A stretch of DNA of 16,160 nt from Conexivisphaerales archaeon. Its GTDB lineage: Archaea > Thermoproteota > Nitrososphaeria > Conexivisphaerales > DTJL01. Location: contig JBEKZX010000034.1 in NCBI GenBank assembly GCA_049509455.1, positions 1-16,160 on the forward strand, written 5' to 3'. Of the stretch, positions 1-6,798 are shown in pieces. Under the pieces are notes generated by a model. That model was not told the DNA's origin. It saw nothing but the letters and a program-made list of their open reading frames with translations, and did no database searches. Position 1 is the first letter of the stretch. Each line of letters starts with the position of its first letter. Made by a program: the position numbers and the translations under genes.

Positions 1-204
1 AAATACCAAGTCAAGCCGGAAGTCATACACCATCTCGATCCGGGCCACAAGATACTCTGGGTTTTGGAAGCACCCAACGCTGAAGCCGTCAGAGACATGA
101 TCTACGCGAGCGGCCTGTCACAGTGGAACGACTTCGAATTCTACATGGCTTCGACCATGGGCCAGATACTCAGCTGGACCGAGAAGCTACAGCCTGTATG
201 GTAG
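1..204 (+). CDS. 3' part of a small alpha/beta protein (DUF3303-like), truncated by the window start
   Basis: Frame 1 is open from base 1 to TAG at 202-204: KYQVKPEVIHHLDPGHKILWVLEAPNAEAVRDMIYASGLSQWNDFEFYMASTMGQILSWTEKLQPVW. The H-x3-W-x2-EAP-x2-EAV pattern resembles small dimeric alpha/beta-barrel hypothetical proteins. Not in the ORF track (no start codon); family call is from memory. Confidence 0.7.
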   Translation, partial: KYQVKPEVIHHLDPGHKILWVLEAPNAEAVRDMIYASGLSQWNDFEFYMASTMGQILSWTEKLQPVW

Positions 205-226
205 AGTAAACGGTCGCCCAACCCCG

Positions 227-234
227 TTCTTTTT
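227..234 (+). terminator. Oligo-T terminator candidate
   Basis: TTCTTTTT lies 23 bp after the stop at 204. Nearly the same context (CCAAC..CGTTCTTTTTG) follows the CMD gene at 3000-3007. Confidence 0.45.
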
Positions 235-291
235 GTATCTCAGGAAAGCTGGATACCGGATGGTCTGTTTCGCATTTATCTTCTACTGTCA

Positions 292-321
292 GCTCATTCT
301 TCGCAGGTCCAAGCCCACGTC
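292..321 (+). repeat. Core repeat B, copy 1 (B only)
   Basis: GCTCATTCTTCGCAGGTCCAAGCCCACGTC; the 20-mer TTCGCAGGTCCAAGCCYACG is at 300-319. Confidence 0.95.
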
Positions 322-702: not shown

Positions 703-758
703 CACCCTGGGCTTCTCCAGCTCTAGGCGACCTCGAAGACTGAACATGAAAAGGGTCT

Positions 759-883
759 CTACTCGTCTAACCCATTGTTTTCAATAACACAAAGAAGGGG
801 TCAGCCCATTCGCAGGTCCAAGCCTACGTCCAGGTTTGTCGTTTGATGATATTGACTTCTTTTCTGGCGGCAACAGACGTCCA
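759..883 (+). repeat. Full-length A-B-C repeat element, copy 2
   Basis: A is CTACTCGTCTAACCCATTGTTTTCAATAACACAAAGA (759-795), B is GCCCATTCGCAGGTCCAAGCCTACGTC (804-830), then a 13-nt linker, then C is TGATGATATTGACTTCTTTTCTGGCGGCAACAGACGTCCA (844-883). Confidence 0.95.
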
Positions 884-940
884 AAAGTAGAATGATGTAC
901 TGCTTGTGCAACTTTCTGTAGCTGAAGTTGACCTTCAGGC

Positions 941-1582
941 CTACTGGGTGCCTAGTTCTGGGACTCGCCGCGTCAGCTCGGCCCAGTCCCCAGCGACAGC
1001 CTCTCTGATGAGAGGTTTGAGCCCGGCGAAGGCCTGGGGAGGCATCAAAGACATCCAGCCTTTCGCAACCACGGCACGGTCGTCATGGTTCAGTAGGGGG
1101 AAGAGCCACCGGACAAGGGTGGGCATTCTCTCAGGCGGCACCTTCCTTGCCATGGTTCCGACGATGGATGCCTGCTGCTCCTCTGTCGTCCGCTCTCGCA
1201 GGATCGGATATAGATGGGCGTCCTCCTTGTCCAGATGAATCCTCAGATGCGTGTCCAGGGCCGCCGTCGCCCGGGCTGTTATGAGAGGGTCTGGCGCTGC
1301 CCTCATCGCTTCCAGCCTGCCGACCAAGGCATCAAGGTAATGATGATCCATGAGGTAGGCCTTTGCCACGAGCGGCGTTAGGTTGTCGACGGCTGGGAAG
1401 ACCGCTTCCTCCTCTCCCCTCGCGTGGTAGTCCAGGATCTCATCCATAATATGAAGCCGATCCAGGACTGGAGCAAGGTCTCCGCCACTGCGCGCTATCC
1501 TATAGACAGCGTCGTCAATCTGAAAGATGTCTTGACGAAACGCATTATGTATGGATAGCACAATGTCAATAGGTCCAGACAT
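941..1582 (-). CDS. Hemerythrin (HHE cation-binding) domain protein
   Basis: HHE motifs are present: IH..FR, YHARGEEEAVFP, MDHHYLD and HLRIHLDKEDAHLYP; 213 aa. TTTATAA on the minus strand at 1606-1612. Confidence 0.9.
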   Translation of the reverse strand: MSGPIDIVLSIHNAFRQDIFQIDDAVYRIARSGGDLAPVLDRLHIMDEILDYHARGEEEAVFPAVDNLTPLVAKAYLMDHHYLDALVGRLEAMRAAPDPLITARATAALDTHLRIHLDKEDAHLYPILRERTTEEQQASIVGTMARKVPPERMPTLVRWLFPLLNHDDRAVVAKGWMSLMPPQAFAGLKPLIREAVAGDWAELTRRVPELGTQ

Positions 1583-1605
1583 AGGTACTTTTTTTCGGGA
1601 GCGTC

Positions 1606-1612
1606 TTATAAA
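1606..1612 (-). promoter_or_regulatory. Archaeal TATA box for the hemerythrin gene (probably leaderless)
   Basis: TTTATAA on the minus strand, 24 bp upstream of the ATG at 1582. Confidence 0.6.
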
Positions 1613-1818
1613 GCTGTGTTGGTACCCTAAGATACGAACACTTAGTTCTCGACCAATTCAGACTACCAGATGTGATTTCGGGGTTCGGCACCGACTAGTA
1701 TTTATTCCCAAGTCTGACTTACTGCTATGCTTCGACGCATGAATTCCATACATCGTTGATGTCTGGAATTCGCTCATGGGAGAGAGATGGCTGCATCGGT
1801 ACCCTGTTCTGCACAGCA

Positions 1819-1845
1819 GCCCATTTTCGCAGGTCCAAGCCCACG
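1819..1845 (+). repeat. Core repeat B, copy 3 (B only)
   Basis: GCCCATTTTCGCAGGTCCAAGCCCACG; exact 20-mer core at 1826-1845. Confidence 0.95.
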
Positions 1846-2163
1846 CATCAATAGGCGTTCAATTCGGGAGGGCTTACGGTGCTGCAATCTATGGTCAAGT
1901 AGACAAGAAGAGGCCAGATTCTAGTTCGGTCTTCGGCGCTGGGAAGGGCTTGTGAATCTCAACCCCGTGTTGATTCCCGGTCTGGGTCGAAAATGGATTT
2001 GACTTCCACAGGCTCCCAGGCGAGTTGAGATTAGGCGTGACCGCCCAGGGGATTTGCAACAGGTGAGACATTCTCAGCCTGAAAGGACAAGCTCATTCCT
2101 CCGATGGCATTATGGAAGGGTTGAAACGTCGTCCGACGAATGTCCATCCGGCAGGGAGTGGAC

Positions 2164-2170
2164 TTTATAA
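2164..2170 (+). promoter_or_regulatory. Archaeal TATA box
   Basis: TTTATAA lies about 21-24 bp upstream of the in-frame GTG 2191 / ATG 2194, which argues for this later start rather than 2140. Confidence 0.5.
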
Positions 2171-2193
2171 GAACGGCGATCGAAAAATGGGTG

Positions 2194-2412
2194 ATGCTCG
2201 AAGAATCTGAAGGAGGGTCGACTTTGGAAGAACTCAACCACAGGCTGACCAAACTGTCCTATCGCCACGTGAGGCTCTATCAAGACGATCTCGGGCTCAT
2301 TTGGACTCACGACCGAGATGACGGTCGGGCATGCGTTGAGACCTTGGAGGACGCCGAGCAGTACGTTCGGCACCTTGAGCACGAGGATCGCTCGATCTCT
2401 GTCATGACTTGA
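2194..2412 (+). CDS. Small acidic hypothetical protein (~72 aa; ORF track starts it at 2140)
   Basis: MLEESEGGSTLEELNHRLTKLSYRHVRLYQDDLGLIWTHDRDDGRACVETLEDAEQYVRHLEH..; TATA box at the expected distance; the stop lies 8 bp before repeat B copy 4. Confidence 0.6.
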   Translation: MLEESEGGSTLEELNHRLTKLSYRHVRLYQDDLGLIWTHDRDDGRACVETLEDAEQYVRHLEHEDRSISVMT

Positions 2413-2420
2413 CTCTGAAT

Positions 2421-2500
2421 GCCCATTCGCAGGTCCAAGCCTACGTCTGAAGTGCGCGATGGATGACATCTACTTCTTTTTCAGCTGCGATAGATATCTA
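2421..2500 (+). repeat. B-C repeat element, copy 4
   Basis: B is GCCCATTCGCAGGTCCAAGCCTACGTC (2421-2447, identical to 804-830), then a 13-nt linker, then C at 2461-2500 (27/40 identical to 844-883). Confidence 0.95.
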
Positions 2501-2590
2501 GATGCCTTTCGTTACAGATAACCGCCATTCTTCCCAGATTCTTCATCTCCGCTTAAGTAGCAGGAATTGACCGCTTCGCCGGTGTCTCAC

Positions 2591-2983
2591 ATGTCTGAAT
2601 ACAAGGAGACTCTGAAGGACATAGAAGCAACACTGGGCTTCGTCCCAGGTTTCATGAAGGCGCTTCCGCAGGACGCGCTTGTATTCGAATGGCCATCGTT
2701 CAAGAAGTATCAACTGGGAGAGAGCGTGATCCCGAGCAAGTATCGAGAACTCATGGGTTTGGCCGTGGCGGCTAACATCAAGTGCCCCTACTGCCAATAC
2801 TTCCACACTGGAGCGGCAAAGATGAACGGGGCCTCCGACGAAGAGATGGCGGAGGTGTTCTACTTAGCAAGCATGACATCCAGATGGAGCTCCATGATAC
2901 ATGCCCAGCACTACGACTACGACACCTTCGTCAAAGAATTCAACCGGATCGGCGCACACCTTCAGAAGAAAGCCAAGAAGTAA
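2591..2983 (+). CDS. Carboxymuconolactone decarboxylase / AhpD-like protein
   Basis: AhpD core KYRELMGLAVAANIKCPYCQYFH with CxxC. ATG 2591 is preceded by GGTG (2581-2584); the track start is TTG 2567. Confidence 0.9.
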   Translation: MSEYKETLKDIEATLGFVPGFMKALPQDALVFEWPSFKKYQLGESVIPSKYRELMGLAVAANIKCPYCQYFHTGAAKMNGASDEEMAEVFYLASMTSRWSSMIHAQHYDYDTFVKEFNRIGAHLQKKAKK

Positions 2984-2999
2984 TCAGCCCTACCCAACG

Positions 3000-3007
3000 T
3001 TCTTTTT
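3000..3007 (+). terminator. Oligo-T terminator candidate
   Basis: TTCTTTTT lies 17 bp after the CMD stop. Confidence 0.45.
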
Positions 3008-3156
3008 GCTATTCCTGATGGCTTAGGCTTACTGACCGTCCGTGAAGAGCAGAAATAGCCGGCACAAACGGCTTTGAACCTACGACGTCGCACCAACTGA
3101 GAGGTTAGGAACGGAAGACTAAATACTGACGACGACGCTCCGAGTGGGCGATTGGA

Positions 3157-3345
3157 TTGAAGGCCTCGGATCAGATTTTCTACGCTGGCTTCCTGTGTCT
3201 CATCGTTACGCTGGTGGCGATGGGCATCGACCTCCTGAGGGGGACCGTGAACCTGAGCAGCGGCCACGCCCTTGCGGTGGCCCTGATTCTCATAGGTGCG
3301 GTGTTCACTTTTCTGGGATTCCAGGGGAAGGCCAGAGGAGCCTAG
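3157..3345 (+). CDS. Small two-TM membrane protein
   Basis: TTG start, 62 aa with two clear hydrophobic helices (IFYAGFLCLIVTLVAMGI; ALAVALILIGAVFTFLGF). Confidence 0.6.
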   Translation: MKASDQIFYAGFLCLIVTLVAMGIDLLRGTVNLSSGHALAVALILIGAVFTFLGFQGKARGA

Positions 3346-3403
3346 GTCAAGCTTCGTCGGTTCGGTCGTTAGGTCGCCCTTCGGCGCCCGGCTACCCCTG
3401 CCG

Positions 3404-3832
3404 CTACTTTGACGAGGCGTTGGCAGCTCTGCGTTTGACCATTTCGGCCTTCATGGCGGCGGGGATTTCGGGCCGGTCGTTTATGAGAGCTGCGAACGCC
3501 CAGTCGGTGAAACTAGCGCAGCGTGTTGCCTCGACGGCGACGACGTCGGCCGACCTCCGCTGGATGTCCAGCACGGCCATTTCGCCGAAGAAATCACCCT
3601 TGCCCAGCTGCGCCAGCACCTTGCCCTTCCGCCTGACTTCTACCCTACCAGAGAGTATCACGTAGAGCCCGATTCCAAGCTCTCCCTCCTCAAGTATCGT
3701 CTGGCCCGCTTGGAAGGATAGATCATAGCCCAACTCCACCGCTTTCTGTAGCCACTTCTTCCCGTAGCCGGAGAAAAGAGAAACCGAGGCTATGGCGCCA
3801 CCAAAATCAGCCTGTCCTACGTCCTCTTTCAT
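3404..3832 (-). CDS. Stand-alone cyclic nucleotide-binding domain protein (no HTH)
   Basis: G-x2-LYVILSGRVEV and the phosphate-binding cassette GDFFGEMAVLD..RSADV. Start moved to ATG 3832 (142 aa) because TTTAAAT lies on the minus strand at 3856-3862. Confidence 0.9.
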   Translation of the reverse strand: MKEDVGQADFGGAIASVSLFSGYGKKWLQKAVELGYDLSFQAGQTILEEGELGIGLYVILSGRVEVRRKGKVLAQLGKGDFFGEMAVLDIQRRSADVVAVEATRCASFTDWAFAALINDRPEIPAAMKAEMVKRRAANASSK

Positions 3833-4011
3833 CAAGCGAAGGGTTTGAGGTGGAGATTTAAACACATCGTCGATTTTCCCACTTCGATCCGCGCGAATCC
3901 GCCCCTGCCCACCCGACTCCCTTGCACTTGAACATACCATCCTGTACCCCTATCCCGGAAGGAATTCTTTAGCAAAGGTTATCACCCCACAGTTTAGCTT
4001 CGGCTTTCACA

Positions 4012-4209
4012 ATGTCCCAACTTTCCGAGGAACTTACGCACCTGAAACACCACGTCTCCTACCCCGCCAGCAGGGCGCAGGTAGTCGCAGCCTGCAACAA
4101 CATGATGGACGTACCCTCTTCCGACAGGGACTGGTTCGCGAAGAACCTACCTGAGGGGACGTACAGGTCTGCGAACGACGTCGTGTCTGCACTGCTCGGG
4201 CGCCTCTAG
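4012..4209 (+). CDS. DUF2795-like small protein
   Basis: HLKHHVSYPASRAQVVAAC...LPEGTYRSANDVV matches my recollection of the YPA..LP..TY.S..DV pattern; followed by a T7 tract at 4230-4236. Confidence 0.7.
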   Translation: MSQLSEELTHLKHHVSYPASRAQVVAACNNMMDVPSSDRDWFAKNLPEGTYRSANDVVSALLGRL

Positions 4210-4229
4210 AGCGTTCGGATTCAAGAGGG

Positions 4230-4236
4230 TTTTTTT
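4230..4236 (+). terminator. Oligo-T terminator candidate
   Basis: TTTTTTT lies 21 bp after the stop at 4209. Confidence 0.5.
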
Positions 4237-4426
4237 CCATAGACGCGACCTACGCCAAGCTCGGGATGACGGATGGTCAGCTTCATCAGGGGCGTCTTCT
4301 TTCCAATAGCGGCCATACTGGTCGCCGGAAGACTAAGGGCTCCAAAGCATCATGAAAAACCTTCTTCGCTGTGGTTCCAACGGTGCGTGACACCCCTACG
4401 ACCGCTCTTTAGACAGCTCCCAGTTC

Positions 4427-4549
4427 ATTCAACATGTTGTTTTCAATAACACAAAGATGAACGAAGTCAGCCCATTCACAGGTCCAACCCCACGTCCAAG
4501 ATTGGCGGTTGACGATATTGGTTTCTTTTCTAGCAGCAATAGATATGCT
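4427..4549 (+). repeat. Full-length A-B-C repeat element, copy 5
   Basis: TTGTTTTCAATAACACAAAGA (4437-4457) is identical to 775-795; B variant GCCCATTCACAGGTCCAACCCCACGTC at 4470-4496; 13-nt linker; C at 4510-4549 (30/40 identical to 844-883). Confidence 0.95.
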
Positions 4550-4577
4550 CCGCCGTTCACTCGAGAACGTCTTGCGG

Positions 4578-4757
4578 CTAGGTATCGCTTGACGGGCGGT
4601 TGTAGCTCTTCTTGCGACAATAAGGGCAGCGCGTAAGGTACCAGCGATATCCTGGCACACTACCGAACAGAAACCATGGAATGACAAGCTTTCTCTGTAA
4701 TCCGCTGATCTCAAACTCAAGGCGGCAATTCTTGCAGGTGAGAGTAAACTTGCCCAA
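4578..4757 (-). CDS. Small zinc-ribbon protein (59 aa), absent from the ORF track
   Basis: Translated by hand: MGKFTLTCKNCRLEFEISGLQRKLVIPWFLFGSVPGYRWYLTRCPYCRKKSYNRPSSDT*. It has two CxxC pairs, a TTG start and TATTAAG on the minus strand at about 4772-4778. Confidence 0.75.
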   Translation of the reverse strand: MGKFTLTCKNCRLEFEISGLQRKLVIPWFLFGSVPGYRWYLTRCPYCRKKSYNRPSSDT

Positions 4758-4802
4758 TCCAATCAGTAGCTCTTAATACCGCGACGGCTGGCCTTCCATA
4801 TC

Positions 4803-4897
4803 CTACTCGCTAATTTAACCAATTGTTTTCAATAATTTGAAGATGACTAATCTGTTGAAGTGTCAACTCACCCCATCCGCCGGTTTGAACCCGCCTC
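4803..4897 (+). repeat. Module A plus a degenerate core B
   Basis: CTACTCGCTAATTTAACCAATTGTTTTCAATAA (4803-4835) aligns to 759-787; CCCCATCCGCCGGTTTGAACCCGCCTC (4871-4897) is 17/27 identical to B. Confidence 0.7.
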
Positions 4898-4986
4898 CGA
4901 TGCTCCTATCCCGGCTTGTGAGAACGATCCGAACGGCAAATCCTTATCACTTCGACCAGGTAAACTGTGTGTTGGCTATTGAACAA

Positions 4987-6288
4987 ATGAATCAGAAAGC
5001 GGTGGCGACACTCGTCATCATGGCGTTCGTAATCGCCGCTTGTTCTGTTGTCTCAAGTCCGGCATGGGCGGGGGGAGCAGTGGGCACTGTAGTGGGCACC
5101 GTGACTGTTGGCGATCAGCCACATAGTGTAGCCTACGACCCCTCAAACGGCTACCTCTACGTCGCGAACTTTGGTCCAAACACCGTGTCTGTCATCGACG
5201 GGGCCACGAACAAGGTGGTAGGGAGCGCCATAGCGGTGGGCGTTGAGCCGATCGGTATAGCCTACGACCCTGCCGACGGCTACCTCTACGTCGCGAACTA
5301 TGGTTCAAACACAACTCCGGACCACAACGGTGCGACCACCACGGGAGTGGGCACCATTGATGTGGGCAAATAGCCTGTTTGGATAGCCTACGACCCCTCC
5401 AACCGCTACCTCTACGTCGCCAACGTGGGCTCAGGCACCGTCTCACTCATCGACGGAGCTGCAAACTCTGTGGTGGGCACCATACCGGTAGGCACATATC
5501 CGGCCGGTATAACCTACGACCCCTCCAACCGCTACCTCTACGTCGCGAACTTTGGTCCAAGCACCGTCTCGGTCATCGACGGGGCGACGAACGAAGTAGT
5601 GGGGAGCCCCATAGCGGTGGGCTCTGGGCCGATCGGTATAGCCTACGATTCCACCAACGGCTACCTATACGTCATCAACCTTTATGCAAACACCGTATCG
5701 GTCATCGACGGGGCGACGAACGAAATAGTGAGGGGCGCTATAACGGTGGGCGCTGGGCCGTATGGGATAGCCTACGACCCTGCCGACGGCTACCTCTACG
5801 TCGCGAACTATGGTTCAGGCACCGTGTCTGTCATATCGACAGGGCCTCCTCCGCCGGCGCTTGCCTCCCTGCAGGTCTCCGCCAGCCCCACGACCGTGAC
5901 TCGTACTTCTTCGTCATCGGGCTCCACCGTAACGGTGATGGCCCTAGACCAGAACGGCACCTCCTTGGCCGGCGTCAACATCACCTTCACGGCATCTAGC
6001 CCTGGCGTCCTGTCACCATCAACAGTCACGTCTGGCTCCAACGGCCAAGCCACATCCACCCTGACCCTCTCTGGGTCGATCACTTCGGCCACGGCCGTAA
6101 GCGTTTCGGCCACCTCTGGCGGCATCAGCAGCGAGTCCGTCCAGGTAACCTTCGTGCCTCCTCCCTCCTCTTCGACTACCGCCTTGGTGGGCGGTGCTGT
6201 CGTCGTCGCCCTGGTTGCCGTGGCAGGCGCGGCGTTCTTCGTCCTGAGAAGGAGGAAGCCTATCCCCATCATCGTCGGTTCGAAATGA
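4987..6288 (+). pseudogene. YVTN/YncE beta-propeller + Ig-like (Big_1-type) cell-surface protein with C-terminal TM anchor, interrupted by an in-frame TAG
   Basis: Signal peptide from ATG 4987; six P.GIAYDP.NGYLYVAN..TVSVID repeats; Pro linkers; an Ig-like DQNG..LAGVNITF..T.SNGQAT segment; C-terminal TM followed by RRRK. Track ORFs 4837-5373 and 5425-6288 are in the same frame, separated only by TAG 5371-5373. Confidence 0.85.
5116..5840 (+). repeat. Intragenic tandem repeats (~126-129 bp x6) encoding YVTN blades
   Basis: 5257-5307 equals 5767-5817 (51 bp identical); 5387-5420 equals 5513-5546 (34 bp identical). Confidence 0.9.
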
Positions 6289-6374
6289 TAGGCCTCTAAG
6301 CTGGGATTGATCTTCTCCAGCGGAGCCCCCCCGCAGATACCCCGCCTTGTCGGCTGGCTCTGTGGGCGATCAAA

Positions 6375-6650
6375 GTGAGATTGAGGATATGGGTATTGGA
6401 TATGCTGCCGCCTGGCTTCGTTGTGTATCTCGAAGGGGGAGGAGTGCACCCGCCGCATTGCGTGGTCTGCGCCCATGCGGCCCACTTCGAGGGATGGCTG
6501 ATCTGCACGGAGTATGGGGCCTACGTCTCTCTCCATTCATCGTGCGGGTCCTTTGAGAGAGCAGAGAGGGGACAACCAATCGTTTCAGAGAAGGAGGTCG
6601 AAGCCAGATTCAAGTCTGGACTTGTAGATTTGAGGGGAGGGAAGAGATGA
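6375..6650 (+). CDS. Small putative zinc-finger protein
   Basis: CVVC-x11-C-x9-HSSC ligand pattern in 91 aa; start uncertain (GTG 6375 or ATG 6402). Confidence 0.5.
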   Translation: MRLRIWVLDMLPPGFVVYLEGGGVHPPHCVVCAHAAHFEGWLICTEYGAYVSLHSSCGSFERAERGQPIVSEKEVEARFKSGLVDLRGGKR

Positions 6651-6798
6651 GCCAAGTCTAGCAATTCATAAACCGTCTTAGTAATTCTATACATTCTTGT
6701 AATTCAAGGCGGGGCTGAGCGGTCGAGGCACGTTCCCCTGTGCCCGCTCCTAGTATTTATCCGAAGACCTAGCCCACGCTCGTACCGGTAGCTCTCGG

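Follow-up and report, generated by a model that had tools for sequence, protein, structure and literature searches.

A directional 27-bp intergenic core at the borders of exchanged gene units in a genus of Conexivisphaerales archaea

The stretch of DNA studied here (the window) is the 16,160-nucleotide contig JBEKZX010000034.1 of a Conexivisphaerales archaeon (Nitrososphaerota; GenBank assembly GCA_049509455.1), and the feature in question is a short intergenic sequence, core B, that recurs along it together with three further repeat modules, A, C and D. The window is contig C69 of genome G000, a metagenome-assembled genome (MAG) of 2.05 Mb in 140 contigs that is 95.5% complete and has a GC content of 58%. 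G000 to G004 are genomes of one genus, G004 being a near-complete assembly, and DNA of this archaeon occurs in peat and wetland metagenomes. Core B reads c.tcTTCGCAGGTCCAAGCCYACGtcc, is approximately 27 bp long and asymmetric, and contains a core 16-mer, TTCGCAGGTCCAAGCC, which starts at positions 300, 809, 1826, 2426, 4475, 8784 and 14197 of the window. All seven copies are on the plus strand. The original prediction for this DNA had listed A, B, C and D with exchangeable flanks around B, and repeat finding and direct reading of the sequence confirmed that all of the listed elements are present. In the following list, x and y denote unique left and right flanks, respectively, and E values are from nhmmer searches with profiles built from genus-wide copies of A, C and D.

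296..321, plus strand: B site 1 (x-B-y), right border of the cassette L3, whose 3' end is window 1-295
757..798, plus strand: A module, 3' end of cassette 322-804 (E 2.6e-08)
805..830, plus strand: B site 2 (A-B-C)
836..894, plus strand: C module, contiguous with B site 2 (E 5.6e-13)
1822..1847, plus strand: B site 3 (x-B-y)
2422..2447, plus strand: B site 4 (x-B-C), 14 nt past the stop of the open reading frame (ORF) 2140-2412
2452..2506, plus strand: C module after B site 4 (E 7.4e-10)
4418..4465, plus strand: A module before B site 5 (E 1.6e-12)
4471..4496, plus strand: B site 5 (A-B-C), variant TTCACAGGTCCAACCC
4499..4555, plus strand: C module past B site 5, ahead of a unit with a small ORF, 4578-4757, on the minus strand
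4806..4847, plus strand: A module with no true B after it (E 1.3e-05)
4858..4911, plus strand: recurrent module GGTTTGAACCC.GC.TCC..TGCTCCTATCCCGG, with homologues elsewhere in the genus
8721..8772, plus strand: D module before B site 6, with a hairpin GTTTGCC(13)GGCAAAC seen on folding (E 2.3e-12)
8780..8805, plus strand: B site 6 (D-B-y)
9374..9424, plus strand: C module without B (E 4.5e-11)
11736..11779, plus strand: C module without B (E 2.3e-08)
14193..14218, plus strand: B site 7 (x-B-y), variant TTCGCAGGTGCAAGCC
14265..14334, plus strand: D module (14265-14311) with nothing of B behind it but the 3' end, CCTACGTC; no 16-mer

The A module at 757-798 contains a palindrome, TATTGttttCAATA, and stop codons in all three frames. 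In all three B-C copies the distance from B to C is 34 nt start to start, i.e. the gap of 13 nt past the end of B that had been reported, and the 13 bases in between are also conserved; hence C is contiguous with B. A further copy of B, described earlier as degenerate, was placed at 4858-4885. This segment matches B at only ~18 of 27 positions and belongs to a separate recurrent module, GGTTTGAACCCCGCTTCCGGTGCTCCTATCCCGG, which was found at 4858-4911 in the window and also at G000:C3:884, G004:C2:34107 and 50731, and G002:C5:6974. It often lies downstream of an A module that ends in AAGATGATTAACCTATTGAG, and its likeness to B may be coincidental. The unit with the small ORF 4578-4757 adjoins B directly, without C, at G000:C3:945 and G002:C22:21737 (right flank family R6).

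Copies of B were counted at up to 2 mismatches to the 16-mer, with the reversed 16-mer as control. G000 has 73 copies and none of the control; at 3 mismatches the count is 22 against a background of 21, and copies of B are therefore either intact or gone. All are intergenic. Among 41 related genomes, four of the same genus gave 60, 24, 44 and 58 matches to the 16-mer, and, one chance match aside, 35 others from the family, order and class gave none. The fifth genome of the genus, G003, has only ~6 sites, which carry an altered centre, TTCGCAGCCCCAAGCC; those located are C95:3955-5094, C11:358, C93:5842 and C51:2645. This variant could help to trace co-variation of the site and its enzyme. B is thus a sequence of a single genus of Conexivisphaerales. 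In 2.9 million viral contigs there were 21 matches to the 16-mer, of which just one continues with CACG, and this one was taken as a chance match because the contig has no other sequence in common with the genus; genuine B was not found in that set.

The point at which homology between copies ends was determined by all-versus-all alignment of the 73 copies in G000. In the 717 pairs that align across the core (positions are numbered relative to core B), left ends of the homology pile up at -13..0 and right ends at +15..+26. Where at least 40 nt of left flank are common to a pair, homology stops at +15..+26 in 75 of 96 pairs, and where a long right flank is common it stops at -20..+2 in 62 of 79; overall, 78% of pairs with one long common flank lose homology at B. 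These data bear out the expectation that breakpoints cluster at B, as opposed to a spread of random ends. The left flanks fall into families, among them A (24 sites) and D (13 sites), as do the right flanks, including C (16 sites) and R1 (7 sites), and left and right families occur in nearly every combination. Complete four-gamete sets, such as A-C, D-C, A-R4 and D-R4, are among these, and the two flanks assort independently. At 77 sites with both flanks unique, conservation is restricted to c.tcTTCGCAGGTCCAAGCCCACGccc, and the information content drops to zero outside about -4..+22.

Positions at the edges of the core were used to delimit the exchange. Bases +20 and +21 go with the right flank, at a concordance of 0.69 and 0.72 as compared with a background of 0.38 and 0.48; in pairs that have only the left flank in common the values are 0.34 and 0.47. 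The spacer CCCA(T0-3)(C) just 5' of the 16-mer follows the left family by inspection, being long in L2 and L4 and short in L0 and L1, although its concordance is ambiguous, since the value is elevated with either flank (0.35 and 0.33 versus a background of 0.21). Cassette L3 behaves in the same way. As +20/+21 follow the right flank and the spacer the left, the exchange falls within about -1..+20 of B. Rare variants of the 16-mer are too few and too confounded to narrow this interval, and the 13C variant, confined to A-bearing sites, does not discriminate because two of the three sites also carry a C-like right flank. Exchange at B is well supported.

The combinations of flanks in the window had been interpreted as attP, attB, attL and attR (the attachment sites of an integrative element and their products). 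Taken literally, A-B-C would be the attP of one integrative element and x-B-y the attB of the chromosome, and their recombination, as by a temperate virus or plasmid with its integrase, would leave x-B-C as attL and A-B-y as attR. The order in the window of x-B-C (2426), A-B-C (4475) and A with a B-like module (4806-4885) does fit tandem units running from C to A, and in the cassettes an initial C goes together with a terminal A more frequently than expected (odds ratio 5, p = 0.04). However, a census with the module profiles of 174 sites, pooled from G000 and the fetched parts of G001, G002 and G004, gave 126 x-B-y, 20 A-B-y, 9 D-B-y, 9 x-B-C, 6 A-B-C and 4 D-B-C. Unique flanks therefore account for 72% of sites, and the supposed attP for 6 of 174. 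A, C and D also frequently occur away from any B (26 of 52, 39 of 58 and 12 of 25 copies, respectively) and are independent repeat modules, not arms of a single attP. Integrase and replication genes are absent from all window cassettes by Pfam search, and no integrase-bearing element lies between any putative attL and attR. An attB usually lies in a tRNA gene or another gene; a tRNA scan of the window was empty, leaving no tRNA target, as was an Rfam scan at E up to 1, and genuine B is lacking from the viral contigs. Thus, exchange at B, reassortment of flanks and recurrence of whole units stand from the earlier interpretation, and a single element giving four att products does not; the literal att model is largely refuted by the site counts and must be regarded as very improbable. 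An array of many cassettes fits the observations better.

The layout of the sites is consistent with such arrays. Neighbouring B copies within 6 kb of each other are co-oriented in 110 of 113 cases (p = 5e-29), and the spacing is gene-sized, with a median of 0.9-1.1 kb; the intervals from B to B in the window are 509, 1017, 600, 2049, 4309 and 5413 bp, with 1-6 genes each on either strand. In 55 intervals the longest ORF has the direction of B, and in 41 the opposite one. Because co-orientation ignores the gene strand, the direction of B is a property of the DNA and not of transcription. In G004, B sites form at least 10 dispersed clusters over several contigs with occasional switches of orientation. 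One such switch, at ~104 kb of G004:C2, is close to a minimum of the cumulative GC skew. Some B sites lie 0.4-3 kb from orc1/cdc6 (G000:C59:17852 and 18208-18489; G004:C4:335466-341429 and 344684-344950). A relation to replication direction was considered and dropped, there being no consistent switch of B orientation at orc1/cdc6 loci.

Whole units recur in different surroundings. L3 is a 520-bp cassette with both borders at B, and was found in three contexts in copies that are 94-95% identical. The first G000 copy is on the metagenome contig Ga0187857_10003413, the second lies between G000:C112 (reverse) and the window, and the third is G004:C2:33480-34000. A scan of metagenomes with the L3 left flank gave 2 contigs. 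On the left, one copy adjoins a unique flank, another a D module and the third an A module, none of them related, and the three right neighbours are unrelated as well; divergence begins immediately 5' of TTCG on the left and after +22 on the right. Two longer segments of G004:C2 behave in the same manner: 26692-28864 corresponds to G000:C112 at 87.6% identity, and 29317-30704 to G000:C96 at 95.1%, the latter being inverted along with its B. Both end at copies of B and have unrelated neighbours. The contig Ga0187857_10003413 (L184, 12.8 kb) also links G000 contigs C93, C3 and C121 (reverse) at 99.7-100% identity, from which it follows that array contigs of the MAG are broken at repeated cassettes. 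G000:C112 (reverse) probably precedes the window.

Given these findings, the reading that we favour, with moderate confidence, is that B is the junction site of an integron-like chromosomal cassette system that does not use attC sites and has its recombinase in trans. The unit would be one to a few accessory genes between directly repeated, asymmetric cores of ~27 bp, of a double-strand type, and recombination between two copies of B would excise, insert or exchange whole B-to-B units. Since whole units would be exchanged at B, any left flank could join any right, and such exchange would yield the A-B-C, x-B-C, A-B-y, x-B-y and D-B forms of the window. A and D at the 3' ends and C at the 5' ends of cassettes would be optional repeat modules. 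A dedicated sequence-specific recombinase would act in trans on B; we infer that recombination at B is site-specific and not homologous exchange within a conserved motif.

The modules themselves bear on an alternative. A and D sit at cassette 3' ends and C at 5' ends, though C was also found ~20 nt upstream of B. A has stops in all three frames and a T-run, and C has a T-run; a role as terminators or insulators where cassettes end is only a guess. A and C have short inverted motifs in common, CTATTG/CAATAG (6 bp), and in a handful of copies they flank a different centre, TTAAGCGAGAGTCGTCATCGTCGGTCAGG (A-B2-C). B2 was considered as a second major core and dropped, having only ~5-6 copies. Separable modules in many combinations, an A..C frame that can enclose another centre, and inverted motifs in its ends would suit a modular intergenic repeat of the BOX/REP (repetitive extragenic palindromic) kind, as would the spread of sites in many small clusters and the lack of a linked recombinase. 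In that case B would be the part of the repeat conserved for another function, such as binding of a chromatin or regulatory protein or insulation, and homologous recombination would shuffle the flanks. Against this, co-orientation of 110 of 113 neighbours regardless of gene strand is not expected from random insertion, at 72% of sites B stands bare, unaccompanied by other modules, and discrete B-to-B packets move between species. Neither target-site duplications nor true terminal inverted repeats were found at the borders, as would be looked for in BOX elements or miniature inverted-repeat transposable elements (MITEs). Moreover, with 22-27 bp the core is at best as long as the shortest homology over which homologous exchange is usually efficient. 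We therefore consider the modular repeat an unlikely explanation, though it is the main alternative.

Several observations weigh against a cassette system with a recombinase in trans. Homologous exchange between copies of an otherwise conserved motif would give the same pattern of breakpoints. Dyad character is limited to CGCAGG-TCCAAG-CCYACG, with 4-5 of 6 positions matching and outer arms that do not match; B thus lacks convincing dyad symmetry, which is unusual for core sites of tyrosine or serine recombinases. The sites occur in at least 10 scattered mini-arrays per genome and not in one headed array. No recombinase is consistently linked to B in the genomes of the genus: the sole tyrosine recombinase of G000 (PF00589) is on C100, away from any B, and its family is patchy and present also in B-less genomes of the order; a serine recombinase, considered as the enzyme, is present only in G004, and IS110 and IS200/605 genes are not conserved across B-carrying genomes. 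Finally, a circular cassette or a strain-level pair of filled and empty sites was not observed in the data, which are assembled contigs only. Filled and empty pairs were sought among the 174 sites, and the sole matches were due to the A, C and D repeats instead of true flanks. In low-coverage Logan contigs of four peat runs, every traced joint has its counterpart in a paralogous module at another place in G000 (1846>4583, for instance, is G000:C3:945, and 8762>4470 is G000:C62:7341); hence these joints hold no strain-level information.

As to the enzyme, the tyrosine recombinase of G000 (G000:C100:1570-2934, minus strand; L001 1135-2502) has 455 aa and a C-terminal zinc ribbon, and its locus is syntenic with G004:C9. 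The tyrosine recombinases of the genus are distantly Xer-like proteins of 395-476 aa that score far under the family cut-offs. For IntI, three of them (one from G000 and two from G002) gave 19-33 bits or nothing with TIGR02249 (cut-off 265), and the XerA equivalog model NF040815 gave 55-74 bits (cut-off 220). The best match in the Protein Data Bank is XerA (5hxy), at an E value of only 2e-08. Two of these recombinases that were aligned directly are similar in the catalytic domain only. Relatives of the C100 recombinase across the order are often found as separate N-terminal or C-terminal pieces, which could be split ('suicidal') integrases or could reflect contig ends. The patchy Xer-like tyrosine recombinases (400-480 aa) are the only candidates, and weak ones, for the enzyme that would act on B. 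DDE_Tnp_1 was rejected, as it was found only in G000. P0001 and P0002, recurrent array-borne proteins, were likewise dropped as candidates because they are polytopic membrane proteins.

Elements of the IS110 family were found within the modules. A 1.3-kb IS110/IS1111-family element with subterminal inverted repeats CTCATGAAAGACGCCC and GGGCGTCTTTCATAAG has three insertions in G004, all at the exact point TTCCAG^CAGCAATAG of the C module, and its copies are 93-95% identical:

L185 3225-4520 (G004:C3:~189225-190520): C-targeting IS110/IS1111 copy
L187 1403-2709 (G004:C3): C-targeting IS110/IS1111 copy
L186 2993-4295 (G004:C7:~18993-20295): C-targeting IS110/IS1111 copy

Another element of the IS110 family, which encodes a protein beginning MFVGLDLHK, splits an A module after TTTTCAATAACATAG, and the junction is identical in two species (G000:C52:30802-31252, i.e. 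L188 ~3803-4253, and G001:C22 ~24462-24644). Independent insertions at one exact position, as expected of a target repeat of IS110/IS1111 elements, were therefore found in C and A and not in B. This homing to the C and A modules is a new observation. As B is uncut and the elements are not conserved in all B-carrying genomes, they parasitise the arrays and do not drive them.

The same elements bring in the possibility that B is read by a nucleic-acid guide, either that of an IS110-type bridge/seekRNA recombinase or that of a TnpB-type nuclease whose cut stimulates exchange. A guide would account for the asymmetric, all-or-nothing conservation of a core that has no dyad and whose copies are intact (up to 2 mismatches) or absent; at 4 of 5 loci, IS110-family genes lie within ~1 kb of B, and each of the five genomes of the genus carries TnpB-like genes. 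However, the IS110 insertions hit C and A and not B, G001, G002 and G003 yielded no IS110 gene, and the ends of the IS200/605-type (IS605) element at G000:C118 are unlike B. No guide RNA complementary to B was found, and none was sought. Such a guide is accordingly an improbable explanation.

The cargo of the cassettes consists of accessory genes, including ABC-2 and major facilitator superfamily (MFS) transporters, winged helix-turn-helix regulators, hemerythrin, and cyclic nucleotide (cNMP) and PAS sensors; mobility genes are not among it. The cassette genes in the window were identified mostly by Pfam:

941..1582, minus strand: hemerythrin-domain cassette gene, on the strand opposite to B (PF01814, E 5e-15)
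2567-2983, plus strand: CMD-family protein, cassette 4 (2567..4209)
3157-3345, plus strand: small membrane ORF, cassette 4 (from the ORF list)
3404-3940, minus strand: cNMP-binding protein, cassette 4
4012-4209, plus strand: weak DUF2795-like match, cassette 4
4837-6288, plus strand: NHL/Big_1 beta-propeller, apparently frame-broken, cassette 5 (4837..8543)
6799-7560, minus strand: ABC-2 permease, cassette 5
7557-8543, minus strand: ABC (ATP-binding cassette) ATPase, cassette 5

Further cargo in the window comprises a PAS protein, an MFS transporter, an ECF-S-like protein and an F420 ligase. The NHL/Big_1 gene is split into 2-3 overlapping ORFs (4837-5373, 5379-5999 and 5425-6288) and holds a tandem repeat of 126-129 bp (5085-5861); its broken reading may be due either to a frameshift or to assembly collapse in a repeat protein. 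The minus-strand genes 3404-3940 and 13660-14088 are paralogous and sit in different cassettes, the latter having no Pfam match and sequence blocks in common with the cNMP-binding gene.

Integrons are the textbook prokaryotic device for stockpiling and reshuffling accessory genes. We suggest, more tentatively than the role of B as a junction, that this genus has an integron-like archaeal gene-capture system of a different build, which may use an unfolded, directional core of ~27 bp, a kind of recombinase so far unconnected with cassettes or a guide, and optional arms A, C and D, and may have IS110 parasites of its own. If so, cassette arrays would have arisen more than once, on different recombination chemistry. 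With a site that is not a hairpin, cassette capture would be commoner and mechanistically more diverse than searches for attC and IntI reveal, and a recombination enzyme with a defined 27-bp substrate would still be to be discovered. The ~200 natural variants of the site, the mapped exchange interval and the variant core of a sister species offer handles for its identification by biochemical or comparative means.

The archaeal integrons published so far have canonical attC sites, and their ORFs generally have the same orientation (Ghaly et al. 2022, PMC9668308). The arrays described here resemble sedentary chromosomal integrons and clusters of attC sites lacking integron-integrases (CALINs; PMC9668308) in that co-oriented copies of one site part gene-sized accessory units, in that sites are closer within a lineage than between lineages and cassettes are shuffled and common to several species, and in that IS110/IS1111-family elements target cassette-associated repeats. 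Like CALINs, they have no adjacent integrase. They differ in the site itself: attC is an imperfect hairpin of single-stranded DNA with conserved outer boxes R'' and R', whereas B has a conserved centre of ~27 bp. Eight sites folded as single-stranded DNA, including two full A-B-C on both strands, did not beat shuffled sequences (z -0.72 to +2.02), and no RYYYAAC/GTTRRRY (R''/R') pair was seen at the site ends by inspection. B was consequently rejected as an attC site. Furthermore, ORFs of integron cassettes are mostly oriented with the site, whereas here they are on either strand (55:41); an IntI-type integrase, which a CALIN does not need, was not found; and the arrays are many, small and dispersed in each genome.

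A dif site has two 11-nt inverted arms around a 6-nt spacer (PMC8371274). B has at most a weak 6+6 dyad and, having no convincing dyad symmetry, is unlike a dif-type site. In the Xer-dependent pdif modules of Acinetobacter plasmids, sites of ~28 bp in alternating orientation bound gene modules, and the recombinase acts in trans. Short double-stranded sites that bound modules in varied contexts are common to pdif and B, and the recombinases of the genus are distantly Xer-like, but copies of B are co-oriented and no XerA equivalog was identified. Pneumococcal BOX (boxA-boxB-boxC) and REP/BIME (bacterial interspersed mosaic element) sequences are modular intergenic repeats. They are similar to the present modules in their variable combinations of A-B-C type, in end modules with short inverted motifs and in their intergenic location, and differ in that here the copies are strictly co-oriented in clusters, are mostly a bare core and coincide with the borders of exchanged gene packets.

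IS1111-attC elements target the recombination sites of integrons (PMC11187229). The elements found here are likewise DEDD-transposase elements with subterminal inverted repeats located at one exact position of a repeat, but it is the A and C modules that they parasitise, and they have no bearing on B or the cassette mechanism. In Thaumarchaeota, tandem integrative elements are multi-gene units of 2.6-98 kb, each with its own integrase and mostly at tRNA genes (PMC6563490). Successive units are parted by direct repeats of the att core there and by B here; the present units differ in their median length of ~1 kb and in having neither an integrase nor a tRNA target. No account of arrays of this kind was found in the surveys PMC6563490, PMC8371274 and PMC9668308, and the flank-family analysis, the exchange interval, the cassette in three contexts, the independence of A, C and D, and the targeting of modules by IS110 elements are new here.

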